Shown here one piece after another: positions 29,201 through 49,002 of a DNA stretch of 64,000 nt. Origin of the DNA: an uncultured virus (IMG/VR IMGVR_UViG_3300017749_000003) (Duplodnaviria > Heunggongvirae > Uroviricota > Caudoviricetes); the IMG/VR virus record IMGVR_UViG_3300017749_000003; one strand, written 5' to 3'. How positions within the stretch are numbered: the first letter of the stretch is position 1; the number at the start of each line of letters is the position of its first letter. A program made the position numbers and the translations under genes. The notes under the pieces are model-generated. The model ran no database searches, was not told the origin of the DNA, and saw only the letters and a list, made by a program, of their open reading frames with translations.

Positions 29201-32200
29201 ATATTCAGTATCCGAAGGTGTTAGATCTCCATTTGAATTTTTGGGTAGGAGTTTTGATTCAGTTCAGAACAATAATCTGAATGTCTTAGCATCAGATGAG
29301 ACTATTCAACTCGACTATTCAATTTACTTGGGAAGAATTGATAGAATTTATCTAGATAAAACAAAGTCATTCCAAGTAGTTCAAGGAATGCCTGAAGAAA
29401 ATCCAGAGGCACCAGTTCCTTTAGATAATGCAATGGAGGTTGCAGTAGTAACATATCCTCCATATTTGGATGATGTTAAAGATGCAAAAATATCTCTCCT
29501 AAACCATAAGAGATATAGAATGCAAGATATTGCATTGCTAGAAAAACGAATTGAAAATCTTGAGTACTATACTCAACTATCTCTCCTAGAAACAAACACA
29601 GCAAACTTAGAAATTAAAGACTCTTCAGGTTCTAGTAGATTTAAATCTGGTTTCTATGTTGATAATTTCACTACAACAGTCAATCAAATAAAACTTGGTG
29701 CTAAGAATGCTATTGATCCAAGTAATAATGAATTAAGACCTTCTTCATATACAACTTCACTCGATTTTATTTTAGGTTCAACAGAGTCTACAGGAGTTAA
29801 TGGTGTAGTTAATAATGCATCGGATTTGAGATTTGCTCAAGATCTTATCGGTGAAAATATCAGAAGATCTACGATCGATCCAAACGGAAGTGCTGGAACA
29901 ATAGGAATGGGTGTCATAACCCTAGACTATGAAGAAGTTGAAGAAGAATCTCAACTAACAGCAACAAGAGTTGTAAATGCTGCACCATACTTTATTAATT
30001 TTTACACTGGTCAAGTAACACTCAATCCATCTTCAGATATTTGGATTGAACAAGCAAGGATTGAAACTCAAACTATCGAAGGATTGCTTGGTGGAATTAC
30101 ACAGACTAACATCACAGCAACTGCTGCAGACTTAGATCCTCAAGCAGGTTGGTCTCCAACACTGTGGGGTGGTTGGAATGAAAATTGGACTGGTAGAACT
30201 ACCTCAAGAAGTACAATAAGTGCTAGTGATTCTGAAACTATTCGTGGTGGATCTGGAACAAGACCTGGAAGTATTACTAGTTCTGCTTCTGTCACAACAG
30301 AAACAGTTACTCAAACAGGAACTGCAACTCAGCAAGGTTTCTCTCAAAGAATAAGAACAGTACCTGGAAATAATATTAGTCTTGGTGATAAAGTTGTGTC
30401 ATCCGACGTTTCTTCCTTCATGAGGCAAAGAAATATTGAGATTGTTGCAAAAGGTATGAAACCTCATACTAGATTGTACGCATTCTTTGGTTCATCACGA
30501 GTAACTAATTATTGTGTTCCAAAATTACTTGAAATCGAAATGATTTCTGGAACATTTACTGTTGGTGAAACGGTTGTTTCTGCTGGAGCAAATTCAAGAA
30601 GACCTGGTTTAACTCAAGATCTACCATATACCTCTTTCCGAGTTGCTGATGCTCATCATAGAACAGGACCATTTAATGATCCTCAAGATGTTTATACAGT
30701 AAATCCTTACACCCGTGAGGAAATGCCTGATCTATATTCTACAACATCGACAATTCTAAATGTTGATCTATCAACAATGGCTCTAGCACCAACTGGAGAT
30801 TATTTTGGATACGTTTCTGAAGGAATGATTCTTCAGGGTAGGAGTAGTGGTGCAAGAGCCAGAATTACGACTCTAAGACTTAGTAGTGATAACGTTGGAA
30901 TGATGCAAGCATCATTCTATATCCCAAATCCAAATGCTGCTGGAGCACCCAAGTTTAGAGTTGGAAATGTAACATTCAAAGTCAGTGATGCAGATACATT
31001 AGATGCTGTTGATGGTACAGCATACACTGGTGGTCAAAAAGATTTCTTCTCACAGGGAACTATTGATAGTATTCAAGGTCAAGTAATTTCTACAAGAAAT
31101 GCTGAAGTTACTAATGCATATACCACACAACAGAGACCTATTAGTAAGACAAATGAGACTGTTGTTGGTCTAAATGTTGATGTTGGAATTACACTTCCAC
31201 AACCCGTACCAATTCCTCGTCCGCAACCACAACCAAGACCTCAGCCACGTCCTAGACCACAACCAAGACCAACACCAAATCCATCACCTAGACCCACTCC
31301 TAGACCTGTACCAAACCCAACGCCTAATCCACGTCCAACACCTAGGCCAAGACCAAATCCACGTCCTAGACCTCAGCCACGTCCTAGACCTAGACCTAGA
31401 CCTCAGCCACGTCCACAACCTAGACCAAGGCCACGTCCTAGACCAAGACCTAGACCTAGACCAAGGCCACGTCCTAGACCAAGACCTAGACCAAGACCTA
31501 CACCCCCACCAGATCCTTGGGGAGATGATGATGATGATCCAATCGCACAGAGCTTCTCGATCGGTAGAGCATCAGATAATACTGGAATTTTTGCTACCTC
31601 GGTCGATTTGTTCTTCAGAACATCATCAACAACTGGACAAACCTGCTTCGTTGAACTTAGACCTATGGTGAACGGACTTCCTTCATCAGAAGTTATCTAC
31701 CCAATGTCCAAGGTTGTTCTAACTGGTCAAGAAGTTCAAGTTTCTGATGACGCAAGTGTACCAACAACTGTAACATTCCCAGCACCAGTATATTTGGAAG
31801 GTGGTATGGAACATTGTATCGTCGTTGGATCTAACTCTACTGACTTTACTTTATGGGTTTCTAGACTAGGTGAAGTTGATGTTGCATCACTAGCACTCCC
31901 AGAATCTCAGCAAGTTCCAATTACCAAGCAATCATCTCTTGGTTCTTTGTTCAAATCTCAGAATGGTTCTACTTGGACTCCAAGTCAGTATGAAGACCTT
32001 AAGTTTAGACTCAATAGAGCAAGTTTCGTGGAAGAAGGAAGTATTAGTTTCTTCAATCCAGATCTATCTGCTGGAAACAGACAAGTAGCAACACTGAAGA
32101 AAGATTCTCTGGAAATGAATTCTAGAAGACTTATCGTTGGACTTGGAACTGTTACCAAGAATTGGGGAACCTTAATTGTTCCTGGTAACACAGTTATTCA

Positions 32201-34004
32201 AGATGGTTCAAATGCATCTGGTAATTATGTAATGGGTCTTGGTATTGCTACTGGCACAATGTCAGTCACCAATGCTGGTCTTGGACTCACACCTTCTAGT
32301 GGAAGTTTCGTATATAACAATGTCCCACTAACCAAACTAACTGGTAAAGGTGAAAATGCAACTGCAAATATCACTGTTAACAATGGAGTTGTAAGTGGTG
32401 CCACAATCTCTGATGGTGGTAATGGATTCAAAGTTGGTGATGTTCTAACTGCTACTATTGGTGGTGGAGTTGGTAGAAATCTACAACTCTCCGTAGCTAA
32501 TATCTTTGGTATTAATGAACTTATTCTTGATCAGGTTCAAGGTAATTTCACTGTTGGTGGTGGAAACACTCTAAGATATATTAATTCAAGTGGTGTAACT
32601 ACCGAGTTTACTGATCAAGGATCTACAGATGTTCTAGTCGCACCAAGAATAGTAACTGATGGATTACATATTAAGGTTAACCATCTAAATCATGGTATGC
32701 ACTCAGATACAAATAATGTCGTTATTGATAGTGCTTCTTCTGATGTTCCTGTCGTAAGACTGGAAGGTGATTATCTACTTAATGCAACTGATGACTTGAT
32801 TATTTCAGATGCTTCCAACTTTGAAAACTTTGAAGGTGTTGGAGTTGGAACCACGAATCCAGGTTACGTTAAAATTGAAGATGAAATTATCTCATACACA
32901 TCAATAGTAGGAAATACTCTTGGTGGAATTACACGACGTATTGATTCCACATTCGGTGGTGCATATGAAAATCAATCTATTGTTGAAAAATACGAGGTTG
33001 GTGGAGTTTCTCTAAGAAGAATCAACAAATCTCACTCACTACAAGATGCAACTATTGGTGAAGATATTGGGTTAGATCATTACACCATTAAAATTGATAT
33101 GTCAACAAATGGTATTGATAGATCTTCTTCTACTTCATTCCCAGCACTATATGCAAATGAGACTAAATCTACTGGTGGTGAGGGTACAAATGCTACTCAA
33201 AATATTCATTATGAAGTTATGAAACCAATTGTACAATCAATGGTTCTCCAAAAAACTAATTTGACTTCAAGAGCAAGAACTGTTACTGCAACTAGTATTG
33301 ATGGTAATGAGATTTCATTCTTGGATGCTGGATATCAAGCAATTAATCTTGAGGATGATAACTACTTCGATTCACCAAGAATGATTGCATCTAAAGAAAA
33401 TGCTGATTCCCTACTAACAACATTACCAGGGAACAGATCATTTGAACTTGAACTCAACATGACATCATTCGATTCTAGACTATCTCCTGTGATTGATCTA
33501 GACAGGATTGGTGGTGTTTTCGTCACCAACAGAGTTAATAATGTAGTTACTGACTTTGTAACCGATTCACGTGTTGCAACTGTTCAAGACGATCCTAGTG
33601 CGTTTGTGTATGCTACCAAACCAATTGGTCTCGAAATTCCAGCAACAAATATTAAGTTGCTGTGTTCCGCATATATCAACAACTTCTCTGATATTAGAGC
33701 ATTTTATGCACTAACTAGTGATCCAACAGAATCACTAATTTATTATCCATTCCCTGGTTATGATAACTTACTTGAAAGTGGTCAGGTAGTTGATTCTGCC
33801 AAGAACAGTGGTAGACCAGATAAGTTGGTTCCACCAACAGACAATAAAGGATTCCAATCTGCGTCACTAACGTTCAAAGATTACACCTTTACTATTGAAA
33901 ATCTACCATCATTCAAATTCTTCAGTGTAAAACTAGTTGGAACTTCAACCAACCAGTGTTACCCACCAAGAATTCGTGACCTAAGAGCAATCGCATTCGC
34001 ATAA
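26202..34004 (+). CDS. large virion structural protein, VrlC/DUF4815-like (2600 aa)
   Basis: PYFDDF, PVQARELT, APGADR, RTFEESGNY, YRMQDI..LEKRIENLEYY, DPIAQSF, SLFKSQN, C-terminal DLRAIA. Confidence 0.85.
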   Translation: MPQLTNLNTFPYFDDFDESNNFYKVLFKPGQPVQARELTTLQSIVQNQVEQFGNHVFKEGSVVIPGSLVVSPNHISLELERTFNGLDVTQYLSSLVGKIITGADSGIRAQVEAFQDTHIFVSLIEGGTDNEQQEFEVDEDIFVQESIPLTDSAITSFSAGASVATIRQYDAGCVAKLTEGIFFLRGNFIKVEEQLLIVSAVEPGPTFTLGFEIEEDFVTSYDDESLYDNSQGFVNFAAPGADRLKITAKMVAVIDGDDFPQNFIELAKVINGVIASSKLVDPQYNILGDELAKRTFEESGNYYIKPFSLEVKNSLQDFKGSNGIYSENETTQSGKIPRDDLAIYQLSAGKAYVQGYEVNIPSGASIDVLKPRTTKEFTSQAVEYATGSTLRVNNVYGAPKIGLSTTYTVSLRSERVGSTATNAAGKEIGLARVYDYALETGSYDAANPLTNSFDLTLFDVVPFTDLTLNEDLTSQQIPTFIKGKSSGAIGYLRYEATSTGIVTAYNVTGNFVKGEELIFNGQDSDRIVLSSTNYGISNIKSVFGEIGSNTFSGDVRQTSVVELGECTFSGGGATVAQADRDFTKDFVVGDLISFKKSGDTLSTLNRVTVVTADNLTVEATQAVSGVHNGALFGNGSINTTKVTTQLGDNGSDTLYTSLPKQNVASVDLSNSAITIRKSFNEPIVSDATGGRLTVLPADLETGETFLPFDEERYIVVNANGETEALTDDKITITSGGRELIIKGLSVVGAATLVATLKKTEVKSQNKVRNRVKTILVDKSSLPGSGVGATTLNDGLTYGNYPYGTRVQDDIICLLEPDVTKIHAIYESSTTGTPQLPRLTLSDISSFNGSVEDALNGEEIIGSESNCVAVLVNKVTSSTAEVVYINGKKFNIGEEITFKESSITASVDLIIDGDNDITGKYTFNNSTKSTIYDYSRITRKPNTKPATRKVTIAYEYASVSSTDTGTLVTTNSYENFDYSNIPTIDGQRQSDIIDIRPKVKTYSVSEGVRSPFEFLGRSFDSVQNNNLNVLASDETIQLDYSIYLGRIDRIYLDKTKSFQVVQGMPEENPEAPVPLDNAMEVAVVTYPPYLDDVKDAKISLLNHKRYRMQDIALLEKRIENLEYYTQLSLLETNTANLEIKDSSGSSRFKSGFYVDNFTTTVNQIKLGAKNAIDPSNNELRPSSYTTSLDFILGSTESTGVNGVVNNASDLRFAQDLIGENIRRSTIDPNGSAGTIGMGVITLDYEEVEEESQLTATRVVNAAPYFINFYTGQVTLNPSSDIWIEQARIETQTIEGLLGGITQTNITATAADLDPQAGWSPTLWGGWNENWTGRTTSRSTISASDSETIRGGSGTRPGSITSSASVTTETVTQTGTATQQGFSQRIRTVPGNNISLGDKVVSSDVSSFMRQRNIEIVAKGMKPHTRLYAFFGSSRVTNYCVPKLLEIEMISGTFTVGETVVSAGANSRRPGLTQDLPYTSFRVADAHHRTGPFNDPQDVYTVNPYTREEMPDLYSTTSTILNVDLSTMALAPTGDYFGYVSEGMILQGRSSGARARITTLRLSSDNVGMMQASFYIPNPNAAGAPKFRVGNVTFKVSDADTLDAVDGTAYTGGQKDFFSQGTIDSIQGQVISTRNAEVTNAYTTQQRPISKTNETVVGLNVDVGITLPQPVPIPRPQPQPRPQPRPRPQPRPTPNPSPRPTPRPVPNPTPNPRPTPRPRPNPRPRPQPRPRPRPRPQPRPQPRPRPRPRPRPRPRPRPRPRPRPRPRPTPPPDPWGDDDDDPIAQSFSIGRASDNTGIFATSVDLFFRTSSTTGQTCFVELRPMVNGLPSSEVIYPMSKVVLTGQEVQVSDDASVPTTVTFPAPVYLEGGMEHCIVVGSNSTDFTLWVSRLGEVDVASLALPESQQVPITKQSSLGSLFKSQNGSTWTPSQYEDLKFRLNRASFVEEGSISFFNPDLSAGNRQVATLKKDSLEMNSRRLIVGLGTVTKNWGTLIVPGNTVIQDGSNASGNYVMGLGIATGTMSVTNAGLGLTPSSGSFVYNNVPLTKLTGKGENATANITVNNGVVSGATISDGGNGFKVGDVLTATIGGGVGRNLQLSVANIFGINELILDQVQGNFTVGGGNTLRYINSSGVTTEFTDQGSTDVLVAPRIVTDGLHIKVNHLNHGMHSDTNNVVIDSASSDVPVVRLEGDYLLNATDDLIISDASNFENFEGVGVGTTNPGYVKIEDEIISYTSIVGNTLGGITRRIDSTFGGAYENQSIVEKYEVGGVSLRRINKSHSLQDATIGEDIGLDHYTIKIDMSTNGIDRSSSTSFPALYANETKSTGGEGTNATQNIHYEVMKPIVQSMVLQKTNLTSRARTVTATSIDGNEISFLDAGYQAINLEDDNYFDSPRMIASKENADSLLTTLPGNRSFELELNMTSFDSRLSPVIDLDRIGGVFVTNRVNNVVTDFVTDSRVATVQDDPSAFVYATKPIGLEIPATNIKLLCSAYINNFSDIRAFYALTSDPTESLIYYPFPGYDNLLESGQVVDSAKNSGRPDKLVPPTDNKGFQSASLTFKDYTFTIENLPSFKFFSVKLVGTSTNQCYPPRIRDLRAIAFA
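31197..31511 (+). repeat. hexamer-based coding tandem repeat giving ~105 aa of (Pro-X)n, mostly Pro-Arg
   Basis: CCTAGA/CCAAGA/CCACGT units; perfect 36-nt tandem duplication 31419-31454 = 31455-31490. Confidence 0.95.
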
Positions 34005-36924: not shown

Positions 36925-37938
36925 ATGTTTGAATATTTTTACCACGAAATTCTGAGGAAAGTTGTTATAGGATTTGGTACGCTCTTTAACGATGTTACTG
37001 TTAAGACAACCGATGCAAGCAATAATGTTACTAATAGTGTAAAAGTTCCTCTTGCATATGCACCTCAACAGAAGTTTTTGGCAAGATTGGATCAATCAGA
37101 AGATCTAAGCAAAACAACTCAAATCACATTGCCAAGAATGTCTTTTGAGTTTACTGGACTTACATATGATTCTTCAAGAAAAGTAACTACAACTCAAAAG
37201 ATTCTTGTCCCATCTCCTTCTGGAGACGGAACAGTTAGAAAGGCATTTATGCCTGTTCCATATAATATGTCATTTGAACTTAATATCTACACTAAGTTGA
37301 ATGATGATATGCTTCAAATTGTGGAACAAATTTTACCATATTTTCAACCACAATATAATCTAACGGTAGAATTGGTTGAAGAGATGAAAGAGAAAAGAGA
37401 TATTCCAATTATTTTGGAGGGAGTCTCTATGGATGATCAATATGAAGGAAACTTTGAGAGTAGAAGAGCACTTATATACACACTAAGATTTACTGCTAAG
37501 ACATATCTATTTGGTCCTGTTGCAAAAGATATCTCTCCCAAGATTATCAAGAAGGCACAAGTTGCTTACTATGCATCTACTACGGATGGTGATAAGAGTA
37601 ATAGAGATGTCACATATTCAGTTGTCCCAGAAGCAGTCAAAGATCTTGATGCTGGTGTAATAACAACTACAACTGTAGATATTGATAAAACTGATGAAAC
37701 CATTTCACTTCTTTCAATTAGTACTATTGAAGAAGGTGATTTAATTCAGATCAATAAAGAGGTTATATACGTCAAACAAAAATCTGATAGTGAGAACAAA
37801 CTTCTTGTTAGAAGAGCACAAAACAATACAACTGCAACATCTCACGTATCTGGAACTAATGTAAATACTGTTGATGCTGCTGATAATGCTTTAGTAGAAG
37901 TTGGTGATAACTTTGGATTTGATGGAGAGTTTATCTAA
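36925..37938 (+). CDS. g15: tail sheath stabilizer/terminator gp15
   Basis: YFYHE..RK....FGTLFN, LPRMSFE, QIVEQILPYFQP. Confidence 0.95.
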   Translation: MFEYFYHEILRKVVIGFGTLFNDVTVKTTDASNNVTNSVKVPLAYAPQQKFLARLDQSEDLSKTTQITLPRMSFEFTGLTYDSSRKVTTTQKILVPSPSGDGTVRKAFMPVPYNMSFELNIYTKLNDDMLQIVEQILPYFQPQYNLTVELVEEMKEKRDIPIILEGVSMDDQYEGNFESRRALIYTLRFTAKTYLFGPVAKDISPKIIKKAQVAYYASTTDGDKSNRDVTYSVVPEAVKDLDAGVITTTTVDIDKTDETISLLSISTIEEGDLIQINKEVIYVKQKSDSENKLLVRRAQNNTTATSHVSGTNVNTVDAADNALVEVGDNFGFDGEFI

Positions 37939-38393
37939 TGGCAAAATATGAGGATCTAAACGAAACATTTAATGTCGAAGAAGAATCACCTATTGTAGAA
38001 GTAGAAGCATCTTCAGAAATTGTTGAGGAACCCAAAAAAGAAAAACCAATAAAGAAAGATGATGTGACAAATGATTATGAGTATACAAGAGGTAATCTAT
38101 ATTCAATTATCGAAAAAGGTCAAGAAGCAATAAACGGAATACTTGAATTAGCACAAGAAACAGAAACACCAAGAGCATATGAAGTTGTTGGTCATTTAAT
38201 TAAAAATGTTTCTGATGCTACTGACAAACTATTGGATCTTCAGAAAAAAATGCACGAATTAGAGCAAGATACTAAAAAACAGGGACCAACAACTGTCAAT
38301 AACGCATTATTTGTTGGATCAACTGCAGAATTATCAAAACTTTTGAGTAAAAACGCATTTGATAATATACAAAATGAAACCATGAATAAATAG
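37938..38393 (+). CDS. g16: terminase small subunit gp16
   Basis: DYEYTRGNLY, PRAYEV, NNALFVGSTAEL. Confidence 0.93.
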   Translation: MAKYEDLNETFNVEEESPIVEVEASSEIVEEPKKEKPIKKDDVTNDYEYTRGNLYSIIEKGQEAINGILELAQETETPRAYEVVGHLIKNVSDATDKLLDLQKKMHELEQDTKKQGPTTVNNALFVGSTAELSKLLSKNAFDNIQNETMNK

Positions 38394-38434: not shown

Positions 38435-41400
38435 ATGAATACAAGTCCAAAAATTAGGTTAAAGAGATCCTTAACTCAAGGGTCTATTCCTACTTTAGAC
38501 CAATTAACTTATGGTGAGTTAGCCATCAACCACTATGATGGCACGGTATTTGTTCGTCAAGATACTGAAGGTGTAGGTATTTCGACTAGAGTCGTTACAG
38601 TTGGTGCTGGAAAAAGTATTGGCAATACCTGGTTTGTTACTGGTAAAGGTGATGATTTAAATAGTGGTTTATCCCAACAAGATGCTTTAGCAAGTGTTAA
38701 ACAAGCATCCATATATGCTCAACCTGGTGATACTATCAAAGTAGCTGCGGGTTATTATGAAGAGAATAACCCAATTGTTCTTAAAGATAACGTATCTGTT
38801 GAGGGATTTGAATTAAGAAACTGCTTTATTGCACCAAATAATCCAAATAGAGATTTATTCCAAATTAATAATGCTTGCCACCTAACAGACTTGGCATTTG
38901 TTGGTAAAGGTGCTGATATTGGTGGTGGTTCAAAAGGTGTTCCTGAAGGAGGTTCTGCCCCAGGATTTCTTGGAGAACCGATGGATAAGGATAAGGCAGT
39001 TATTGCTTTCGTTCCTTTAGAAGGTGTTGCAGTAGATAGATATTTTGATGGTGCGAGATTGATCCGTCAAAATGCAGATTATATTGCTGGTGAAGCAGTT
39101 GGTTTCCTTACCAGTGGTTTTAGTGGTGTTGCTGGATCTCACAGAGCACAGGATGCTGCAAGACTTATTGATTTAAACGCAGAATATATTGCAGCAGAAG
39201 CAGTAGGATTTATCACTAGCATCAATTATGCTGGTGGTGCATTTACGATGTCATTCAGCACTGCCAGAAACTGTCAGGATGATATCCACGATCTTTTAGA
39301 AGTAGTAGCACATGATTTAAGATCAGGTTATAGAAATGGTACTCAAGCAAATAGTAAAACAGTAGGTGCCGCACAATCTTATTTTGTTGGTGGAGCACTA
39401 TCTCATATCCTAGGCATTGGTATTTCTGAGGCAACAATCGCAGCAATGACTCGTGCTGCTGGTATTGCAACATTCGTTATTAACAACAAACCATATAGTT
39501 TTGAAACAAAAGGAAGTGGTTCAACCGTTACTGGACTTGAGTATACACCAAATACTGGTGTTACGACAGTTACAACTCTAGTTGGTCATGGACTAAGCAA
39601 CACAGATCACGTTAGTCTGAACAATTTAGAATTTACATGTCCTGGTGGTTCTGGTATTACAACTACTACTTTCCCAGATGGAAGTAGTCCTTCTGGATTT
39701 ATCTACAAGATTGATTCATCTGCACTATTCAATAGTAACCAATTCGTTATCAACACAGGTATTTCTTCAATTCAACACACTTATGTTCCAAGTTCTGGTA
39801 CTGCTGTTACAACATTCCAGTACAGCACTTTTGAACAGCAATTCGATACTGGTGCTCTTGCAGGAACAACTCTTCGTGGTGAAAACGTTGTAGGTAATGG
39901 TATCTGTCTCAACGTCAACAATGACATCACTGAACTAGTTGGAATTGTAACTAGTGCAATTGGTGCAGGTAATACTGACAGTCTTCCTGGCATTACCACT
40001 GGCATCAGACTAGATCAGAATAAGTGTCGTCGTGATGTTGCAAAGATTTTGAAAGCTGTTTGCTATGACATCACCCGTGGTGGTAATACAAAAGTTGTTG
40101 GTGCTGGTAAATCATATTTTGATGAAAATGGTAATAGACTTTCTGCTCTTCTCGTCGATCCAGATGAATACGAGCAATCTGTTATTGCACTAGAATATTC
40201 AAAAGATGTAGCACGAAGAATTGTTAATAATGTGAGAGACGGATCTTATACAATTGGAACTGCATTTAACATCACTTCGGGAGAATATTCTAACACTTCG
40301 GGTATTATTACAGTAACAACTAATGTTGGTCATGGTTTAACTGATAAGGATACTGTTAAACTTGCTGGTCTTGGATTCAGTTGTGCTGCTCATAATAATG
40401 TAATTTCTATCACAGATTTCCAGTATGATAGACAATCAGGTTTCAGTACTATCTTTGTGGGTTCAGATCACGGATTAAGTTCTGGTGATGAATTTGAACT
40501 TCGTGGTATCAAGATGGACTGCGGTGATTCTGGTACTGGTCCTCTTGTTAATGTAAGTGCCGCAACATATGATGAAAATAATGGTTTTATTGAAATAACA
40601 ACTAGTGCAGCACATGGAGCATTTGCAGGAAAAACAGTACAAGTTAAAGATTTAGAATTTACCTGTCCTAGTTCTGGGATCGGACCAGTTGTTAATGTAG
40701 ATACAGCAGTATATGATGAATCTAGTGGCAATCTAACAGTCACTACTACTGGTGTCTCTGGTATTCACACTCTCAGGACTGTTCAAATCAAGAATCTAGA
40801 ATTTAGTTGTCCTGGTGGTTCTGGTATTACTACGACAATCTTCCCAGATGGAACAAGTAACTTCATTTCAGGGTATGGTCCAGATGTATTTAAAGTTACT
40901 GCAGTAAATTCAACGACCGAGTTTGTCGTTAATGTTGGACCTTCCACAATTGCACATACCTATGTTAGTGGTGGTACTGCACAAGCAGGTATTACAACTA
41001 CAATCTTCCCAGATGGAACAAGTAACTTTATTCGAGGTTATGGTCCAGATGTATTTACAGTTGTTCAAGTAGACTCACCAACTGTACTCAAACTTAGTGT
41101 TGGAGTATCTACAATTCCAACAACTTATGTTTCTGGTGGTACTTTACAAGCAGGTATAACCACATCAATTTATCCAGATGGTGTACAAGGTGGTGGTGAT
41201 GCTATCTTTGATGCTTATGTTGGTACTGGTGGAACAGTTGTCTATACGAATGTAGGTATTTCCACGATTGAACATACTTATAATTCTGGTGGTGAACTAC
41301 GAATTGGTGTTACTACATCTATCTTCCCAGACGGAACATTTGGTGATTGTTTTGAAGTTGAGTCATTCGTTACAGATAGGCAAGTAGCAATAAACGTTGG

Positions 41401-43180
41401 CATGTCAACTTTTGCTCATAGTATGGTAGAAGGTGGAACAATACAGAAGACAAGAAGATTTAGACCAGATATTGGTCAAATTAGAGATGTAAGTATTCAG
41501 ATTGATTCTGATACTGGCACTAATAATACTGTTGGTAACTGTAAGAATGTTATTTCTGCTGTAAATACTGCAGTTGGAATTTGCACTGCAATCATTGAAA
41601 ATGGATTCCAAGCACTTCAGGATCCAGCATACTTAGAAGTATCAACAGCAGCATATGTTGCAAGTAATGGAACACTTACATTAAATACAACAACAAATCA
41701 CAATCTTTCCAATGGTGATAAAATTAAGTTAAAAAATAATTCTATCGTATTTACTTGTGATTCTGATGGTGGAAATACTCAAATTGGATACCCAGATAAA
41801 ACCAGTCCAATTTTTGATAAGTTTATTCCAGTCACGGTTACTGGTGCTACCTCACTGACTGTTAATACAGGAGACGCTGGTACTGCATCAACACTAACTC
41901 ACAGTTTCGTTTCTGCTGGATCATCTGTAATCAACTACGGTGGTGTTGGAATTTCTACAAGATTCCCAGGTAATGGTGGTGCTGGATCCGACTTTATAAA
42001 TGATCCTTCATTCTCTCCTGGTACTGACGGTCCTGTCCTAAAAGGTCCATATGTCAGAAACTGCACCAACTTCATTGAAAATAGCATCGGTATGAGAATC
42101 GATGGTTTTGATGCTGATCCTGGTGATAAAGACGAACTGGGTGTACAGGGATCAATGAGTGTTGACTCATTCACCCAATACAATCAGGGTGGTATCGGAG
42201 TATCCATTACAAACGGTGCATATGCTCAGTTGGTGTCTATCTTTACCATTTGCTGTAACGAGGCAATTGTAACCCTTACAGGTGGTCAGTGTGACCTTAC
42301 AAACTCCAACTCATCCTTTGGTGAGTTTGGTCTAGTTTCTAAGGGTGTTGGTGATGAAAAATCCAGTTCTAACTATAGACAGACTGCTGAAGTCGTTAAG
42401 GCAGGTGATCCTGGAAGAACAGATGCTCAAGGTAGATATGATATTGGTGATAGAAGAGTTGTTCTGAGTGGTGTTGGTACACAAAGACCTTATGATGGTC
42501 AAACATTATTCTTTGATGAACTCTACTTCTCTGTAGAGAAAGTCAAGATTACTAATCCTGGTTCTGGATATCAGGGTGCTGTTCCAGGTGTTACATTCTC
42601 TGATCCAACGGGTCCAGATGGTATTACCGCACAAGGTATTCCCATTATCGAAGATGGACAAGTTGTTGATTTCTTAGTTGCCAACTCTGGTACTCAGTAT
42701 CAAAAAGATTCGTTCCCAGTAATCACAATTACACCACCAAATGATGGTGTAACGGCAACTGTCGAGGTTCAACGAATGCAACCACTCTACTTCAAGGTTG
42801 CATCTTCAACACTTCCCAGTGGCGGGATTGCAACTGTCACCATGAACCAAGGACTAAATAACAATTTAACGGGTGGTGAAATTGCCTACATAACTCGTCA
42901 GAGTTTGCAGATTACATCTTCACACTCATTTGAATATGTTGGTGCAGGAAACACAATCCTTACCGCAAGACCTTCAGTCGGAGGTATCATCATTCAAGAT
43001 AATGAAGTTGTTCAAGAGGACGGTGGTCTTGTAGTTTATACAAGTACCGACCAGGCAGGTAACTTCAGAATTGGTGATGGTATCCAAATTGACCAGGCAA
43101 CTGGAACGATCTCTGGTCGTGTTTATATTAAATCATTGTTCAACAGCGTCACACCCTTTATTCTAGCACTCGGAGGTTAA
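38435..43180 (+). CDS. large fibre/spike-like virion protein with split beta-helix and nested repeat domains
   Basis: IRLKRS...GELAIN N-terminus, GDD.NSG...GDTIKV..G.Y.E pectin-lyase-like start, C-terminal YTSTDQAGNFRIG; ATAAATA at 38386-38392. Confidence 0.8.
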   Translation: MNTSPKIRLKRSLTQGSIPTLDQLTYGELAINHYDGTVFVRQDTEGVGISTRVVTVGAGKSIGNTWFVTGKGDDLNSGLSQQDALASVKQASIYAQPGDTIKVAAGYYEENNPIVLKDNVSVEGFELRNCFIAPNNPNRDLFQINNACHLTDLAFVGKGADIGGGSKGVPEGGSAPGFLGEPMDKDKAVIAFVPLEGVAVDRYFDGARLIRQNADYIAGEAVGFLTSGFSGVAGSHRAQDAARLIDLNAEYIAAEAVGFITSINYAGGAFTMSFSTARNCQDDIHDLLEVVAHDLRSGYRNGTQANSKTVGAAQSYFVGGALSHILGIGISEATIAAMTRAAGIATFVINNKPYSFETKGSGSTVTGLEYTPNTGVTTVTTLVGHGLSNTDHVSLNNLEFTCPGGSGITTTTFPDGSSPSGFIYKIDSSALFNSNQFVINTGISSIQHTYVPSSGTAVTTFQYSTFEQQFDTGALAGTTLRGENVVGNGICLNVNNDITELVGIVTSAIGAGNTDSLPGITTGIRLDQNKCRRDVAKILKAVCYDITRGGNTKVVGAGKSYFDENGNRLSALLVDPDEYEQSVIALEYSKDVARRIVNNVRDGSYTIGTAFNITSGEYSNTSGIITVTTNVGHGLTDKDTVKLAGLGFSCAAHNNVISITDFQYDRQSGFSTIFVGSDHGLSSGDEFELRGIKMDCGDSGTGPLVNVSAATYDENNGFIEITTSAAHGAFAGKTVQVKDLEFTCPSSGIGPVVNVDTAVYDESSGNLTVTTTGVSGIHTLRTVQIKNLEFSCPGGSGITTTIFPDGTSNFISGYGPDVFKVTAVNSTTEFVVNVGPSTIAHTYVSGGTAQAGITTTIFPDGTSNFIRGYGPDVFTVVQVDSPTVLKLSVGVSTIPTTYVSGGTLQAGITTSIYPDGVQGGGDAIFDAYVGTGGTVVYTNVGISTIEHTYNSGGELRIGVTTSIFPDGTFGDCFEVESFVTDRQVAINVGMSTFAHSMVEGGTIQKTRRFRPDIGQIRDVSIQIDSDTGTNNTVGNCKNVISAVNTAVGICTAIIENGFQALQDPAYLEVSTAAYVASNGTLTLNTTTNHNLSNGDKIKLKNNSIVFTCDSDGGNTQIGYPDKTSPIFDKFIPVTVTGATSLTVNTGDAGTASTLTHSFVSAGSSVINYGGVGISTRFPGNGGAGSDFINDPSFSPGTDGPVLKGPYVRNCTNFIENSIGMRIDGFDADPGDKDELGVQGSMSVDSFTQYNQGGIGVSITNGAYAQLVSIFTICCNEAIVTLTGGQCDLTNSNSSFGEFGLVSKGVGDEKSSSNYRQTAEVVKAGDPGRTDAQGRYDIGDRRVVLSGVGTQRPYDGQTLFFDELYFSVEKVKITNPGSGYQGAVPGVTFSDPTGPDGITAQGIPIIEDGQVVDFLVANSGTQYQKDSFPVITITPPNDGVTATVEVQRMQPLYFKVASSTLPSGGIATVTMNQGLNNNLTGGEIAYITRQSLQITSSHSFEYVGAGNTILTARPSVGGIIIQDNEVVQEDGGLVVYTSTDQAGNFRIGDGIQIDQATGTISGRVYIKSLFNSVTPFILALGG
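40835..41057 (+). repeat. intragenic direct repeat
   Basis: ACAATCTTCCCAGATGGAACAAGTAACTT identical at 40835 and 41000, similarity continuing through TATGGTCCAGATGTATTTA; TGTCCTGGTGGTTCTGGTATTAC also shared by 39638 and 40808. Confidence 0.9.
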
Positions 43181-43183
43181 ATC

Positions 43184-43522
43184 ATGGCAGCAGTTGCAGT
43201 TAACAACTTTAGAACAGTTACTCATACAGTATCCACAGGTACAGCAACAGAAATTTATACTGCACCAACTGGTTATACATCAGTGTTTCTATTAATTCAG
43301 ATAACTAACACTGACATAGCAACAAAAACAATAAGTCTTTATCACAAAAGAGAGTCAACAGAAACAGCACTCTTAATAGATTACCCAGTCGCATCTAAAG
43401 ACAGTTTGAGTTTACTTAACGGTAAACTTGTACTACAAACGGGTGACAAATTGGCAATTAATGGTAGTGCATCAGGTGTATTAAAATTAGTTGCATCTGT
43501 TCTGGAGACATCCAACTTCTAA
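43184..43522 (+). CDS. small putative fibre-associated structural protein
   Basis: IYTAPTGYTS...KLVLQTGD...SVLET; GGAGG Shine-Dalgarno. Confidence 0.75.
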   Translation: MAAVAVNNFRTVTHTVSTGTATEIYTAPTGYTSVFLLIQITNTDIATKTISLYHKRESTETALLIDYPVASKDSLSLLNGKLVLQTGDKLAINGSASGVLKLVASVLETSNF

Positions 43523-43537
43523 TACGGTATCAAATCA

Positions 43538-45673
43538 ATGCAAGCACGTAAAAGGTTTTTTTCAGGTAGAGAAACATCTTTATCTCTGGGAATACAGGAT
43601 TTTTCCGCAAATGACACAGTTCTCGAAGTAACTGAGGGACGAGTTGGATTTGGTACAACTCAAGCTGCGTATCAACTCACCGTTAATGGTGATATGCAGT
43701 TACATAATTCACTATATGATTATACTAATAGTCCAGGAGAGCAAGGATTATCCTTAGTTTCTACAGGTTCTTCCGTTGTTTGGGGAACACCAGAAATTAC
43801 TTTTGGTGGTATTACCGTTCAAGAAGAAGGTGTTGTAGTTGGTAGTGCTGGCAGTGTTCAGATATTGAACTTTGTTGGTGATAGTGTTACTGCGGATTCT
43901 TTCCTAGGTATTGCAACCATTACAGTCGATCCATTTGATCCTGTTGGTGACAATACTTATGTTCAGTTTAATGATAATGGAAATTTTGGTGGTGCAGAAG
44001 GATTAGTATATAACACAACTCTGAAGAGAGTTGCAATTGGTGATACATTATTTGGATCAGAAACATTATATGTAACTGGCAATGTTGGAATTTCCAGTGA
44101 ACTTAATGTAGAAAAAGTATTTGTCTCAGATAAGTCACCCACCCAGGCAAACGAACTTGCCAGTAAAGAATACGTTGACCTCTTCGCAACTGCTGCACTT
44201 GTCATTCAGCAAGCAGTTTCTGCAGGTACAACACAAAATCTTGCTTCATCAGTATATCAAGATGGTCCAACTGCTGGTATTGGTAATAGTTTTCTAGGTA
44301 TTGGTGCATCTCTATATTCATCTGTAAATGGTATACTTACAGTTGATGGATTTACTCCAGTTGTTGACGATCGTATTCTTGTTAAAGATCAGACCAGTGG
44401 ATTACAAAATGGATTCTATGCAGTTAAAGATCCTGGAAGTGGATCTTCTCCATGGATTCTAGAAAGAACACAAGATTTCGACCAACCAGATGAAATCGTT
44501 GCTGGTGCGTTCACCTTCGTTACGAATGGTAATGAAAACCAAGCAAATGGTTTCGTGCTTATTGATATTCAACCAAAATTTGCTGCTGGTGGTTATGTTG
44601 GTCTCTCCGCACTTGAATTTACGCAGTTCTCTGCTGCTGGTCAGGTAGAAGCAGGTGATGGTCTGTATAAAGACGGATCTGTTATTAATGTTGGTACTGC
44701 AAATTCTGATCGTATCAGAGTCAATGCTGATGATATTGATCTAGCTGTAGTCTCAACTTCAAATACAGATACAGGCAGTGATAATGAAAAGTTCTTTATT
44801 ACCACTGTTCAGACTGATGGATATGGAAGAGTAACTGGTATTGCAAGTGATAAGCATCAATTTGCATCATATACAGATCATGGTGTTGTAAGACTTGATC
44901 CTCTTGCATTCCACATTAATCCAGTTTCTGGTATTATGAGTCAGGCGGTTTATACCAATATAACCAACCTGAATATGCCTCTTGGTAATAATATTGGTAT
45001 TGCAACTATCAATCTAATCAAAGGATGTGATATTGATACCAATGGTGATATCTTATCCATGAATAATGGTAATTTCCTTGGAATTGTTACTGCAAATTCA
45101 TTCTCTGGTGATGGTTCTGGATTGAGTAATATTGTCACTGGTGTTGGTCTTGCAACTGAAGGTGGTTTTGTTGGTAGTGGTGCAACAACCATCGATTTCA
45201 GAGGTCCTGGTGTTGGAGTAGTTACAATTGATCTTAATACTGGTATTGGTACTGTTAGGGTTGAAGGTGGTGCAAATGTAGATGAAGTTGGTAATGCAAA
45301 CCAAGTTCTTTATAAAGATAATAATAACGTTGCAACAACATCCGCAAACTTACAGTTCAACGGAACGAACTTAACTTGTGCTGGTCAAGTTACCGCAAAC
45401 TCTGACGAAAGACTCAAGGAAAACGTTGAGACAATCACAGATGCACTCGATAAGGTTCTTGATCTGCGTGGTGTATTCTTCAATAGAATAGGTAATCCAG
45501 AACGTCAGATTGGTGTAATTGCACAAGAAGTTGAGAAGGTTATTCCTGAAGTAGTTCTTGAGGCAGGTGATGGAGTTAAATCCGTTGCATACCAGAATAT
45601 AGTTGCTCTCCTAATTGAGGCAATCAAAGATCAGCAACTTCAAATTGATGAACTTAAAAGGAAACTCAACTAA
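43538..45673 (+). CDS. tail fibre protein with C-terminal intramolecular chaperone (peptidase S74)
   Basis: RILVKDQ...NGFY domain; SDERLKENV...IGVIAQEVEKVIPEVV...V.Y..IVALLIEAIK plus coiled coil. Confidence 0.88.
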   Translation: MQARKRFFSGRETSLSLGIQDFSANDTVLEVTEGRVGFGTTQAAYQLTVNGDMQLHNSLYDYTNSPGEQGLSLVSTGSSVVWGTPEITFGGITVQEEGVVVGSAGSVQILNFVGDSVTADSFLGIATITVDPFDPVGDNTYVQFNDNGNFGGAEGLVYNTTLKRVAIGDTLFGSETLYVTGNVGISSELNVEKVFVSDKSPTQANELASKEYVDLFATAALVIQQAVSAGTTQNLASSVYQDGPTAGIGNSFLGIGASLYSSVNGILTVDGFTPVVDDRILVKDQTSGLQNGFYAVKDPGSGSSPWILERTQDFDQPDEIVAGAFTFVTNGNENQANGFVLIDIQPKFAAGGYVGLSALEFTQFSAAGQVEAGDGLYKDGSVINVGTANSDRIRVNADDIDLAVVSTSNTDTGSDNEKFFITTVQTDGYGRVTGIASDKHQFASYTDHGVVRLDPLAFHINPVSGIMSQAVYTNITNLNMPLGNNIGIATINLIKGCDIDTNGDILSMNNGNFLGIVTANSFSGDGSGLSNIVTGVGLATEGGFVGSGATTIDFRGPGVGVVTIDLNTGIGTVRVEGGANVDEVGNANQVLYKDNNNVATTSANLQFNGTNLTCAGQVTANSDERLKENVETITDALDKVLDLRGVFFNRIGNPERQIGVIAQEVEKVIPEVVLEAGDGVKSVAYQNIVALLIEAIKDQQLQIDELKRKLN

Positions 45674-45698: not shown

Positions 45699-47342
45699 AT
45701 GGCAAAGACCTGCAAACCAGGATATTACTGGTGCTATACCAGTAAGAAATGTAAAAAAATTCCTCTTGGTTGGCATGTAGGTCGTGGTGGCGTACTTGGA
45801 AAGGATGATGAAGATAATACAAACGATAATGAAAATGGTGAATCTTCTGAAGGTGGTGGTGAAAATGGTGGCGGGGTGAGTGAAGGAAATCTTCGTAAAT
45901 GGTTCAAAGGATCTAAATCTAAAGATGGAAAAAGTGGATGGGTCAATGTAGTTACAGGTGGAACCTGTGCTAGTGATGAACCAGGTGAAGGAACTCCAAA
46001 GTGCGTTTCTTCATCAAAACGTTCTAGTATGAGTAAGAAAGAAAGACTTTCTGCTGCTAGAAGAAAGAAAGCAGCAGATCCTGGTCAACAATCAAAATCT
46101 GGTGCTGCTAAACCAACTTATGTTGCAACAGATAAAAAAGAAGAAGTAGAAATTACTGATGCATACGGTGAACCATTCGCAGTAATTAACGATCTTATTG
46201 AGAAGGAACCAATGAAATCAAACGCACCCGATATTGAGAGTTATGAAACCTATGATATCGAAGCAATGACAGAAGGAAAAGATAAAAAAGGAAAGGGTAG
46301 TGGCACAAAAGATGCTTGCTATCATAAGGTCAAGTCTCGTTATTCTGTATGGCCTTCTGCATATGCATCAGGTGCTTTAGTTAAGTGCCGTAAGAAAGGT
46401 GCTGCCAATTGGGGAAATAGTACTAAAGAAGAATTTTCTGACTGGAGATCTGAAGTTTTTAGTGAAGGTGCAATGCCTGCAGCAATTGACCCCAAAGCAC
46501 ATAGAGGTCAACAACGTGCTGCAAAGGTAAGGAATCTTGCCACGAAAGGTTCTACCGAAGGAGAAAGATCAGCAGCAAAAGGTAAAACCAAGGGACCCGA
46601 TCTATTTGGTGAAGCTTGCTGGGCTGGATATGAAAAGAAAGGTATGAAGACAATGTTTGGAAAGAAATATCCAAACTGTGTTAAGAAAAAGAAGACAAGA
46701 AAAGAAGAAGTGGAACTTGATGAAAAATGTTGGGATTCACATAAGCAAGTTGGTATGAAAAAGAAGGGTGGCAAGATGGTCCCCAATTGCGTTCCTAAGA
46801 ATGAAGAAGTTGAACCAAAAGAAGTTTGCCCATACTGCAGTTGTGATCCCTGTGAATGTGAAGGTGTAGCAATTGAAGAGGCAGTAAGAGTTCCTGCAAA
46901 AACTGGTAACATTCTGTCCGTCATGGTTACATGGAGAGGTAAAGGATATTCTATCAAGATATTCTTCCCACAAGCAAAGAGACCTACCAGGCAGGAAGTT
47001 GAACTCGAAGTTCAAAAGATCTATCCTGGTGGTAGAGTAAGATATATGGAAATTGCGGATGTCAAACCTGGTGAGCAATTCCTGCAGGTTTCTGAGGGTG
47101 CTGCATGGACTAAGAAGTCTGGTAAGAACAAAGAAGGTGGTCTCAATGAAAAAGGACGCAAGTCTTATGAAAGAGAGAACCCTGGTTCTGATCTAAAAGC
47201 ACCTTCTAAGAAGAAAGGTAATAAGAGAAGAGCATCATTCTGTGCAAGAATGAAAGGTATGAAGGCAAAACTAACTTCTGCCAAGACTGCTAGAGATCCT
47301 GATAGCAGAATTAATAAAAGTTTGAGAGCTTGGAATTGCTGA
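45699..47342 (+). CDS. modular Lys/Cys-rich late protein, possible head-internal polyprotein
   Basis: Short basic modules (WPSAYASG, two CW...GMK...PNCV copies, RRASFCARM) separated by acidic linkers; CTAAATA at 45670-45676. Confidence 0.75.
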   Translation: MAKTCKPGYYWCYTSKKCKKIPLGWHVGRGGVLGKDDEDNTNDNENGESSEGGGENGGGVSEGNLRKWFKGSKSKDGKSGWVNVVTGGTCASDEPGEGTPKCVSSSKRSSMSKKERLSAARRKKAADPGQQSKSGAAKPTYVATDKKEEVEITDAYGEPFAVINDLIEKEPMKSNAPDIESYETYDIEAMTEGKDKKGKGSGTKDACYHKVKSRYSVWPSAYASGALVKCRKKGAANWGNSTKEEFSDWRSEVFSEGAMPAAIDPKAHRGQQRAAKVRNLATKGSTEGERSAAKGKTKGPDLFGEACWAGYEKKGMKTMFGKKYPNCVKKKKTRKEEVELDEKCWDSHKQVGMKKKGGKMVPNCVPKNEEVEPKEVCPYCSCDPCECEGVAIEEAVRVPAKTGNILSVMVTWRGKGYSIKIFFPQAKRPTRQEVELEVQKIYPGGRVRYMEIADVKPGEQFLQVSEGAAWTKKSGKNKEGGLNEKGRKSYERENPGSDLKAPSKKKGNKRRASFCARMKGMKAKLTSAKTARDPDSRINKSLRAWNC

Positions 47343-47349
47343 TTGATTT

Positions 47350-49002
47350 ATGAATGATGTATACCTTGGTAATCCTAATTTAAAAAAAGCAAACACTCCC
47401 CAAGAGTTCACAAAAGAACAGATTGAGGAATTTATTAAATGTAAAGAAGATCCCGTATATTTTGCAAAAAATTATGTAAAGATCGTAACACTTGATCATG
47501 GTCTTCAACCATTCAAGTTGTATGACTTTCAGGAAAAGTTAGTCAATAGATTTCATAAAAATAGATTTAACATCTGTAAGATGCCTCGTCAGACTGGTAA
47601 GTCTACAACGTGTGTGTCTTATCTACTTCACTATGCAGTCTTTAACGATAGTGTAAATATTGGTATCCTGGCAAACAAAGCAGCAACTGCCCGAGAACTT
47701 CTCGATAGGTTACAAACTGCTTATGAGAACTTGCCACGATGGATGCAGCAGGGTATTATATCCTGGAACAAAGGTAGTTTGGAGTTAGAGAATGGGAGTA
47801 AAATACTGGCAGCATCTACGTCTGCAAGTGCTGTCCGAGGTATGTCTTTTAACATCCTCTTTCTCGACGAGTTCGCATTCGTCCCGAACCACGTTGCTGA
47901 CTCGTTCTTTGCCTCTGTTTATCCTACTATTACTTCTGGTAAAAGTACCAAGGTAATTATTGTATCTACTCCACATGGTATGAATCATTTCTACCGTCTG
48001 TGGCATGATGCGGAAAGAGGGAAGAATGAGTATATTCATACAGATGTTCACTGGTCAGAAGTTCCAGGAAGAGATTCTAAGTGGAAAGAACAGACTATTG
48101 CAAATACTTCAGAAGCACAATTCAAAGTTGAGTTTGAATGTGAATTTCTAGGATCAGTTGACACACTGATTGCCCCCAGTAAATTGAGAACATTGGTGTA
48201 TGATTCACCAATGCATAAGAATGCAGGTTTAGATGTATATGAACCTGTAAAAAGTAATCATGATTATATAATGACAGTAGACGTTGCTCGTGGTGTTGGC
48301 AATGATTACTCGGCATTTGTGGTTGTAGATATCACAGAGTTTCCTCATAGAGTTGTAGCAAAGTATAGGAACAATGAGATCAAACCAATGTTGTTCCCAA
48401 GTGTCATCTATGAAGTTGCAAAAAATTATAATAGTGCATATATTTTATGCGAAGTTAATGATGTTGGAGATCAAGTAGCATCAATTCTTCAATACGACCT
48501 TGAATATCAGAATGTTCTTATGTGTTCAATGAGAGGACGTGCTGGCCAGATTGTTGGGCAAGGATTCTCAGGTAAGAAGACACAACTAGGTGTCAAAATG
48601 TCCAAGACGGTTAAGAAAGTGGGATCACTTAACCTCAAAGCTATGATTGAAGAGGATAAGTTAATCTTTAATGATTATGAGATAATTGCCGAACTTACCA
48701 CATTTATATCAAAGCACAATTCATTTGAAGCAGAAGAAGGATGTAACGATGACCTTGCAATGTGTCTTGTAATCTATGCATGGTTGGTAGCACAAGACTA
48801 CTTCAAGGAACTTACCGATCAGGATGTTCGTAAAAGAATATATGAAGAACAGAAGAATCAAATTGAGCAAGACATGGCACCATTCGGATTTATGGATGAT
48901 GGACTAGAAGACACTAGTTTTGTTGATGCTCAGGGAGATCGTTGGTCTAATGCATCAGTTGGTGAATATGGTGATATGTCATATATGTGGGATTATAATT
49001 AA
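47350..49002 (+). CDS. g17: terminase large subunit gp17
   Basis: YLGNPNLK, Walker A PRQTGKST, Walker B LFLDEFAF, VSTPHG, nuclease DVARG and DDLAM. Confidence 0.97.
   Translation: MNDVYLGNPNLKKANTPQEFTKEQIEEFIKCKEDPVYFAKNYVKIVTLDHGLQPFKLYDFQEKLVNRFHKNRFNICKMPRQTGKSTTCVSYLLHYAVFNDSVNIGILANKAATARELLDRLQTAYENLPRWMQQGIISWNKGSLELENGSKILAASTSASAVRGMSFNILFLDEFAFVPNHVADSFFASVYPTITSGKSTKVIIVSTPHGMNHFYRLWHDAERGKNEYIHTDVHWSEVPGRDSKWKEQTIANTSEAQFKVEFECEFLGSVDTLIAPSKLRTLVYDSPMHKNAGLDVYEPVKSNHDYIMTVDVARGVGNDYSAFVVVDITEFPHRVVAKYRNNEIKPMLFPSVIYEVAKNYNSAYILCEVNDVGDQVASILQYDLEYQNVLMCSMRGRAGQIVGQGFSGKKTQLGVKMSKTVKKVGSLNLKAMIEEDKLIFNDYEIIAELTTFISKHNSFEAEEGCNDDLAMCLVIYAWLVAQDYFKELTDQDVRKRIYEEQKNQIEQDMAPFGFMDDGLEDTSFVDAQGDRWSNASVGEYGDMSYMWDYN

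Follow-up and report, generated by a model that had tools for sequence, protein, structure and literature searches.

Nested split barrels in a cyanophage virion protein: a predicted two-stranded arm of variable depth

Introduction

The stretch of uncultured virus DNA analyzed here (IMG/VR record IMGVR_UViG_3300017749_000003; 64,000 nucleotides (nt), referred to as the window) is the structural region of a T4-like cyanophage. One of its genes encodes a protein of 1581 amino acids (aa) in which four consecutive N-terminal halves of a small domain are followed by four consecutive C-terminal halves of the same domain. This order raises two questions: which N-half pairs with which C-half, and how could such an array change in length while its halves remain matched? 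An earlier note, made from the letters alone, had proposed that the domain repeatedly inserted into itself, so that the chain runs out and back. Taken as a whole, the reading of the protein as carrying a nested arm, with a depth set by the exchange of cassettes and a role in display or spacing, appears probable; its parts are not equally secure and are considered in turn.

Order of half-domains in the 1581-aa protein

The halves were located by translation and with purpose-built half-domain hidden Markov models (HMMs), and both confirmed the four N-halves and four C-halves at the coordinates given by the earlier note (Table 1). Every N-half of the nested block terminates in F/M-x-C and every C-half begins, exactly at the first position listed for it, with G-I/V-TT-x-I-F/Y-PDG. 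Along the protein the halves run NC, then NNNNCCCC, then NC, in one open frame throughout. The innermost unit, N4-PGGS-C4, is itself an intact copy of the domain. The intact module noticed previously at about 39515-39815 was recovered at 39524-39802, and a sixth barrel, more divergent and absent from the earlier note, was also found. With < > denoting a helical domain and ( ) a barrel, the layout of the protein is <()><(((())))>(). The half-domain HMMs found no further barrel copy in the rest of the 64-kb window.

The whole stretch is present in a single contig in each of three sequencing runs, with no differing letters; these runs may be the source of the window. The same layout with three layers occurs in the cultured phage S-SCSM1. 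Because single contigs span the block and a cultured phage has a three-layer version, the nested order is not an assembly artefact. No depth variants were seen in the contigs of four runs, although contigs drop rare variants; one joint with a short side of 21 letters was disregarded.

Predicted structure of the arm

An AlphaFold2 model of aa 603-1013 was built with 44 sequences in the alignment (predicted local distance difference test, pLDDT, 75; predicted template modelling score, pTM, 0.45), and small solved domains were superposed on it. Forty-nine of the 50 best structural matches (VIA rows, 70-89 aligned residues each) span exactly the nested pairs: 11 cover N4/C4, three N3/C3, 32 N2/C2 and three N1/C1 (model ranges in Table 1). 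This is the pairing that the earlier note had predicted for such a model. The best fold match was the FCCH domain of the E1 enzyme Uba1 (Z 8.2, root-mean-square deviation (rmsd) 2.5, 80 residues aligned), which lies on N4/C4, and Foldseek compared the arm model with E1 FCCH at a probability of 1.00. The endosialidase barrel of phage phi92 (Z 7.8) came next, followed by flavin-reductase barrels. Foldseek rows naming alphavirus glycoproteins were rejected as chance (probability at most 0.11, rmsd about 30). In the model the arm domain is a six-stranded antiparallel barrel superposable on E1 FCCH; model ranges and bracket statistics (below) both place the outer domains in two distant segments that enclose the inner copies.

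When the N arm and the C arm were folded as separate chains the score was 0.48, against 0.00 for the best of three controls, which supports their association weakly. The runs shared at least 86% of contacts and the partner pLDDT was at least 62; with an unrelated partner the arms themselves fell to a pLDDT of 33-36 (N arm) and 28 (C arm). The score mark was reached by 116 of 157 solved pairs and two of 215 mismatched pairs; at scores up to 0.60 these comprised 18 solved pairs and both mismatches.

The model together with comparative genomics makes it very probable that the block folds as four stacked E1-FCCH-like barrels, each composed of an outgoing N-half and a returning C-half, in a two-stranded arm. 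Nothing suggested that the strands slide, as the "telescoping" stalk of the earlier note would have it. A near-invariant Cys closes the N-halves (1693 of 1799 distinct rows, the remainder being gapped there; window 40808-40810 is an example) and a His is conserved in the C-halves (1638 of 1720). A Cys/His contact or a metal site joining the two halves is possible.

Depth among orthologues and in the wider family

We compared 121 proteins of similar length, namely that of the window and the best 120 of 323 hits. The layout is common to 50 of them: 28 have two N-halves and two C-halves (2/2), 11 are 3/3 and nine are 4/4. Only two are unbalanced, one being a truncated 3/2 and the other a real 2/4. 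The expectation that homologues would vary in depth with equal numbers of N- and C-halves was thus borne out in 48 of 50 cases. Lengths cluster near 1373, 1480 and 1581 aa, a step of about 105 aa, and depth differs even between phages that are 80-94% identical. The outer shells (N1, N2, C2 and C1) are conserved, and extra layers enter at the centre. Trees of 91 halves each gave the groups N1, N2 and N3+N4 and the groups C1, C2 and C3+C4, from short alignments with rough support.

For the wider family 120 longer proteins (best 120 of 211) were added. Parsing yielded 92 distinct, untruncated strings of at least four halves from 228 proteins; the proteins parsed had also served to refine the HMMs, and relatives among them do not count as independent. 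Of these strings 58 are balanced, and 57 of the 58 are well-formed, that is, they never close before opening, against 8.4 expected at random order; 83 of the 92 are at most one half from balance. A second set comprised 135 new representatives of 50% clusters, scored with the earlier HMMs, from which 67 truncated strings and one that was too short were set aside. Balanced strings numbered 39 of the remaining 67, and 37 of them were well-formed (27 nested, 10 plain tandem; 7.1 expected), with 60 of 67 at most one half from balance.

The first block is well-formed in 30 of 30 giant proteins. S-CAM7 gp208 (P0122) and ACG-2014f gp265 (L010 12981-24884) come from cultured phages, have about 4000 aa and 31-35 barrels in branched trees, and open with a branched tree of 15 domains that is eight deep. 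Mirror similarity was examined in five related giants: rho was 0.29-0.40 for nested pairing and 0.12-0.22 for in-order pairing, and between none and one of 3000 permutations reached the nested value. Barrel nests also occur in giant proteins bearing YHYH, in Mtd_N/S74 fibres and in CBM5/12 proteins, and in some relatives barrels enclose helical domains. Insertion takes place in three loops: one follows F-x-C, another the first hairpin of the N-half, and the third FP-x-G in the C-half. The C-PGGS-G loop proposed in the earlier note is the main insertion site of the family, but not the only one.

Gain and loss of layers

All of 24 hand-picked pairs of relatives differ by whole subtrees or by halves that match, the junctions lying in F-x-C and G-TTT-FPD; in 22 of them a single contiguous unit, located at the tip or next to it, can account for the difference. 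Depth could change when a contiguous N+C cassette, or a whole subtree, is acquired or dropped. In this scheme homologous crossing over takes place twice, where an N-half ends in the conserved F-x-C and again where a C-half starts with the conserved GITTTIFPDG, and a donor's longer insert would replace a short loop. Crossovers in register would spread an existing depth between phages, while crossovers one layer out of register would create a new depth in one step with the halves still matched. Single crossovers would leave orphan halves, seen only as rare survivors. The simplest reading would be that co-infecting phages recombine in patches, each motif being the site of one crossover. T4-like phages recombine intensely and their exchanges are clustered. 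Motif DNA of at least 85% identity is present in many other contigs of the same samples. We favour this double-crossover route with modest confidence. Since double crossovers at conserved motifs would suffice, no special self-insertion machinery need be invoked, and the paired or self-insertion duplication that the earlier note had called for becomes unnecessary.

The nesting itself stands, but an origin by self-copying agrees less well with the sequences. When the depth-3 members of two subfamilies that lie closest to each other are compared, N3 and C3 are 64-80% identical, and N2 and C2 on either side reach 37-49%. The nearest sequence to N3 of the window is N3 of a depth-3 relative (72%, against 46% for its own N4), and the window's N4 is closest to a half of another relative (62%). 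At the step from two to three layers N3 is only 23-36% identical to N2. Judged by these identities, the inner layers are more likely cassettes from related phages than self-copies.

The claim that the innermost halves are most alike held fully on the C side. C4 and C3 are the most similar C-halves (73% aa, 77% nt), and the 29-nt exact DNA repeat reported for them is present, starting at 40835 and 41000. On the N side it held for protein, N3/N4 being the most similar adjacent N-halves (46%, against 23% and 33% for the others), but not for DNA, where they are 62% identical, tied with N4/N5, and share no exact match longer than 11 nt. This DNA divergence argues that the N side contains no recent self-copy. 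Between the first intact barrel (39620-39688) and the arm tip (40790-40858) the DNA of the loop is 84% identical over 69 nt, above the domain-wide likeness, which suggests gene conversion at the insertion site.

A serious rival, although on the whole an unlikely one, is that the same nesting arose because each arm, N and C, was lengthened by a tandem duplication of its own; single unequal crossovers would have produced these, and selection would have removed the unbalanced intermediates. Single-arm events do occur: L005/P0009 has two N-halves and four C-halves through an in-frame deletion of 282 nt with the loss of two N-halves, and its N1 and N3 join at a short DNA match (L005 4799-4889). It may be a natural unbalanced allele or a chimera. 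By identity the N3/N4 and C3/C4 pairs differ in age, linkers N2-N3 and N3-N4 are copies of one another, as are the linkers of the C side, and two of the 24 pairs (P0051/P0061 and P0128/P0147) gained or lost non-contiguous pieces, so that the cassette route needs a further exchange there. These points favour the rival; L005/P0009 and the two pairs also count against the double-crossover route. The separate duplications, in turn, have to accommodate the fact that only one of 50 orthologues is truly unbalanced, that N3 was not copied from N2 and that subfamilies have the N3+C3 cassette in common, and that branched subtrees of eight domains are gained or lost in balanced form.

The host protein and the base of the arm

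The assignment of the 1581-aa protein to the virion rests on the GenBank note "virion protein" of its S-SCSM1 orthologue; this protein, S-SCSM1_26, is the closest cultured relative, with 75% identity over the full length. PHROGs matches were to cyanophage tail-fibre and virion families. A Pfam search with the whole protein gave no match, and self-BLAST returned only the self hit.

Two segments of the protein align with a relative in phage S-PRM1, fibre P0056 (Table 1). A model of P0056 compared with tailspikes and lyases gave a best Z of 14.3 (rmsd 3.5, 196 aligned), and by way of this relative the body is assigned to the right-handed parallel beta-helix fold. Because the corresponding parts of the S-PRM1 protein adjoin directly, aa ~196-1191 (window 39020-42007, ~1000 residues) would constitute one insert in one turn of the helix.

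Table 1. Features of the gene encoding the 1581-aa protein (window coordinates; model ranges refer to the AlphaFold2 model of the arm)
Feature	Coordinates	Strand	Remarks
Host open reading frame (ORF)	38435-43180	+	1581 aa; spike/fibre-type virion protein; between small and large terminase genes
Beta-helix part 1	38612-39019	+	Right-handed parallel, tailspike/pectate-lyase fold; aa ~60-195; aligns with S-PRM1 fibre P0056 5-151
Helix like first helix of phycobiliprotein-like domain	39026-39130	+	phmmer against helix of neighbouring copies, E ~2e-4
Phycobiliprotein-like domain 1, main part	39137-39487	+	C-x-x-D; profile against PDB
Intact FCCH-like barrel N0-PGGS-C0	39524-39802	+	HMM; inside helical domain 1
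Domain 1, last helix	39878-39970	+	Second conserved Cys
Phycobiliprotein-like domain 2, C-R-R-D part	40022-40231	+	Base where arm leaves
N1, outermost N-half	40268-40384	+	HMM; partner C1; model range 1-408
N2	40406-40522	+	HMM; partner C2; model range 47-365
N3	40550-40666	+	HMM; partner C3; model range 99-306
N4, innermost N-half	40694-40810	+	HMM; partner C4; model range 142-252
PGGS turn	40811-40822	+	Arm tip; main insertion site of family
C4	40823-40978	+	HMM
C3	40988-41143	+	HMM
C2	41153-41296	+	HMM
C1, outermost C-half	41306-41440	+	HMM
Domain 2, last helix	41477-41605	+	Second conserved Cys; closes host around arm
Sixth barrel	41639-41923	+	HMM; intact, more divergent
Beta-helix part 2	42008-42376	+	aa 1192-1314, corresponding to P0056 160-274

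Two split helical domains host the barrels, and they appear nested in each other. A profile of these domains searched against PDB (window and locus rows) gave 60 listed hits, all of them phycobiliproteins, with a best E of 0.0055; addition of eight uninterrupted homologous domains lowered this to 4.3e-5, again with 60 of 60 listed hits to phycobiliproteins. The invariant Cys of the helical domains is aligned with the bilin-bearing (helix-E) Cys of phycobiliproteins. This Cys is present in 447 of 448 and the Asp of the same motif in 450 of 452 domains, counts that carry a bias, the motif having been the seed of the profile. A second Cys, before the last helix, is invariant (226 of 226), and it may be the equivalent of the second bilin Cys of beta subunits; some matches reach the end of the phycobiliprotein chain, and the alignments shown stop before this Cys. 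The matches begin at about residue 30 of the subunits. Two homologous domains pass the PF00502 cut-off of 22.2 (P0222 with 28.6 and P0071 with 22.7). The helical segments of the window itself gave no PF00502 match, the domain had no named hit in the atlas, and P0222 had no hit in PDB by phmmer.

On this sequence evidence the arm starts from and returns to a single loop of a phycobiliprotein-like domain, and that domain lies in a loop of a tailspike-type beta-helix. The additional helix at 39026-39130 may be part of domain 2; domain 1 would in that case be enclosed by domain 2 as well. Helical domains are lacking in the S-PRM1 relative, a point against the reading as a whole.

Possible function of the arm

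A chain inserted in a loop has to come back to where it started; nesting would turn this constraint into an arm that projects in a line, whereas copies in tandem would crowd around the base. Since the arm tip carries no other domain, the barrels are the likely payload. We give about even chances to the proposal that the arm displays accessory surface-binding barrels, or spaces them, on a host-recognition spike. On siphophage tail tubes the FCCH domains point outward (PMC13576161), and in the K1F endosialidase the barrel is a polysialic-acid binding, host-discriminating site (PMC12632334). A shared fold, however, demonstrates no function.

A different and improbable role is that of a pigment-carrying element, in which the Cys residues of the helical domains would bind bilins and the arm would be the part that is moved or displayed. 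The exclusively phycobiliprotein hits with their aligned bilin Cys and the near invariance of Cys and Asp would agree with this, as would the light-dependent adsorption reported for several marine cyanomyoviruses (PMC2984593). The residue counts, however, carry the seeding bias, domain 1 lacks the Arg of C-x-R-D, and there is no PF00502 match in the window's own segments and no such domain in relatives such as that of S-PRM1. We consider a pigment role a weaker proposal than barrels as the payload. Similarly doubtful is a broader version, in which cyanophage spikes and baseplates would follow a recursive grammar whose two bracket types are interchangeable, FCCH-like barrels giving tunable, branching adhesion arms and phycobiliprotein-derived hubs carrying bilins, with arm length set by cassette recombination in one step and a light-responsive display. 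If true, it would provide a physical basis for light-dependent adsorption.

Alternatives to nested pairing

Several observations weigh against the nested arm as modelled. The pairing was read from the first and last aligned residues of the superposed domains, and one of the 50 matches (149-300) mixes N4 with C3. The two-chain score, itself weak, says nothing on register, and a known fold cut into halves may pass such a test through resemblance. The mirror-similarity test that favoured nesting in the giants was uninformative in the 1581-aa protein, where 10 of 24 permutations were equally good, and it also failed in six depth-4 relatives. Covariation trained on 869 intact domains scored nested and in-order pairing alike (mean z 1.35 and 1.39). 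Unbalanced strings make up 34 of 92 and 28 of 67 in the two sets, mostly off by one; part of them was inspected, and these had divergent, missed halves in the gaps.

The halves might accordingly pair in order, or between the chains of an oligomeric spike by domain swapping, the brackets then reflecting counts and not register. All halves are homologous, covariation could not separate the registers, and tailspikes are usually trimers. We nevertheless regard this as very unlikely: the turn of N4-PGGS-C4 has the same four residues as in the intact copy, well-formed order is far above chance, the pairing in the model is nested, and mirror similarity in the giants favours nested over in-order pairing. 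That the halves are independent small tandem repeats, or their order an artefact of assembly, is hardly credible: each run does resemble a tandem array and C3/C4 share the 29-nt repeat, but arms without their mate are modelled at a pLDDT of 28-36, counts are matched across depths, single contigs span the block and cultured phages carry the layout.

Comparison with known systems

Recursive nesting of one fold is of a known kind. Si3 of the cyanobacterial RNA polymerase beta' subunit (RpoC2) consists of recursively inserted SBHM/HABAS domains (PMC10895346, PMC13114784), and with six levels and branching it is the showcase of a 2026 survey of 2.7 million domains (PMC13114784). Both are small beta domains inserted in their own copies, with the inner domain continuous and the outer ones made of distant segments; both form an elongated out-and-back appendage from a loop of the host domain, and Si3, too, has branching nodes. 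The phage arm differs in its FCCH-like fold and its place in a virion protein, with depths of 2, 3 and 4 among close relatives. The phage family reaches eight levels and 33-35 domains, uses at least three insertion sites, occurs in several unrelated virion proteins, and its layers appear to move between phages as cassettes. The arm works like the Si3/SBHM family, whose hybrid-motif fold is found in the RNA polymerase trigger loop, but does not belong to it: the crystal structure of Si3 (8emb) matched with a probability of 0.05 and a template modelling (TM) score of 0.08, and the fold is FCCH-like.

The FCCH domain of E1 enzymes (PF16190) is likewise a six-stranded barrel, and chain E of phage FCWL1 matched with a Z of 6.9. 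Known copies are single and continuous, whereas the phage barrel has an added F-x-C/GITTTIFPDG loop and is split by its own copies. A PF16190 search with the 1581-aa protein gave no match; relatives scored 31.9 bits (P0079) and 29.1 bits (P0129) against a cut-off of 29.5. The nearest named atlas cluster was PF16190 (0.86), which serves as a lead only. The phi92 endosialidase barrel (4hiz; rmsd 2.3, 81 aligned) is inserted in a phage receptor-binding spike, but there a single copy sits in a propeller and has a demonstrated sugar site; identity to the arm is 12%. The host body resembles beta-helix tailspikes (that of cyanophage Pam1, 7eea, and others), and differs from them in having a domain tree inserted in one turn. 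The helical domains can be aligned with phycobiliprotein subunits (PF00502) along most of the chain, and they retain the bilin Cys; in contrast to the subunits, they occur in a virion protein, are split by inserts and leave the first 30 residues of the subunit unmatched.

We found no description of recursive same-fold nesting in phage virion proteins, in cyanophages or in the FCCH fold in the open-access literature. A local FCCH likeness is mentioned in PMC13612043, and gp208 is not named in the available part of the S-CAM7 coevolution preprint (10.64898/2026.10.08.757702).

Domains seldom insert into others of their own kind, and growth of an arm by nesting has otherwise been described mainly in cyanobacterial RNA polymerase. 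The phage family is deeper, larger and branched, and has been caught changing depth. Because natural alleles of two, three and four layers, an unbalanced allele and cultured hosts exist, the origin and folding of nested domains become directly testable. The family also offers a rule by which arms, linear or branched, could be designed to grow from an internal loop, and it links such arms to phycobiliprotein-like hubs that are open to tests for pigment binding. Since their domains are split, giant cyanophage proteins stay "hypothetical" in profile searches.

Genome setting and neighbouring genes

The 334 matching phage records are mostly named Synechococcus (273), with 35 named Cyanophage and 12 Prochlorococcus. 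In the window the flanking terminase genes are at 37938-38393 (small subunit) and 47350-49002 (large subunit). On the 3' side the gene of the 1581-aa protein is followed by a gene of 112-116 aa and then by a fibre gene, in the window phage as in S-SCSM1 and ACG-2014f. At 43184-45673 of the window the small gene corresponds to phrog_1276 and the fibre gene has an S74 chaperone; the counterpart in ACG-2014f is L010 24889-29425. This cassette of three genes (spike, 112-116-aa gene and fibre) is conserved, and its position in the genome differs among phages.

Two further ORFs of the window deserve mention. The first (26202-34004) encodes a VrlC-like virion protein of 2600 aa with a long proline-rich run of PRPRPRP/PNP/PQP repeats at 31100-31700. 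The second (45699-47342), located between the fibre gene and the large terminase gene, is a lysine-rich mosaic of 547 aa with DUF6321 at its end.

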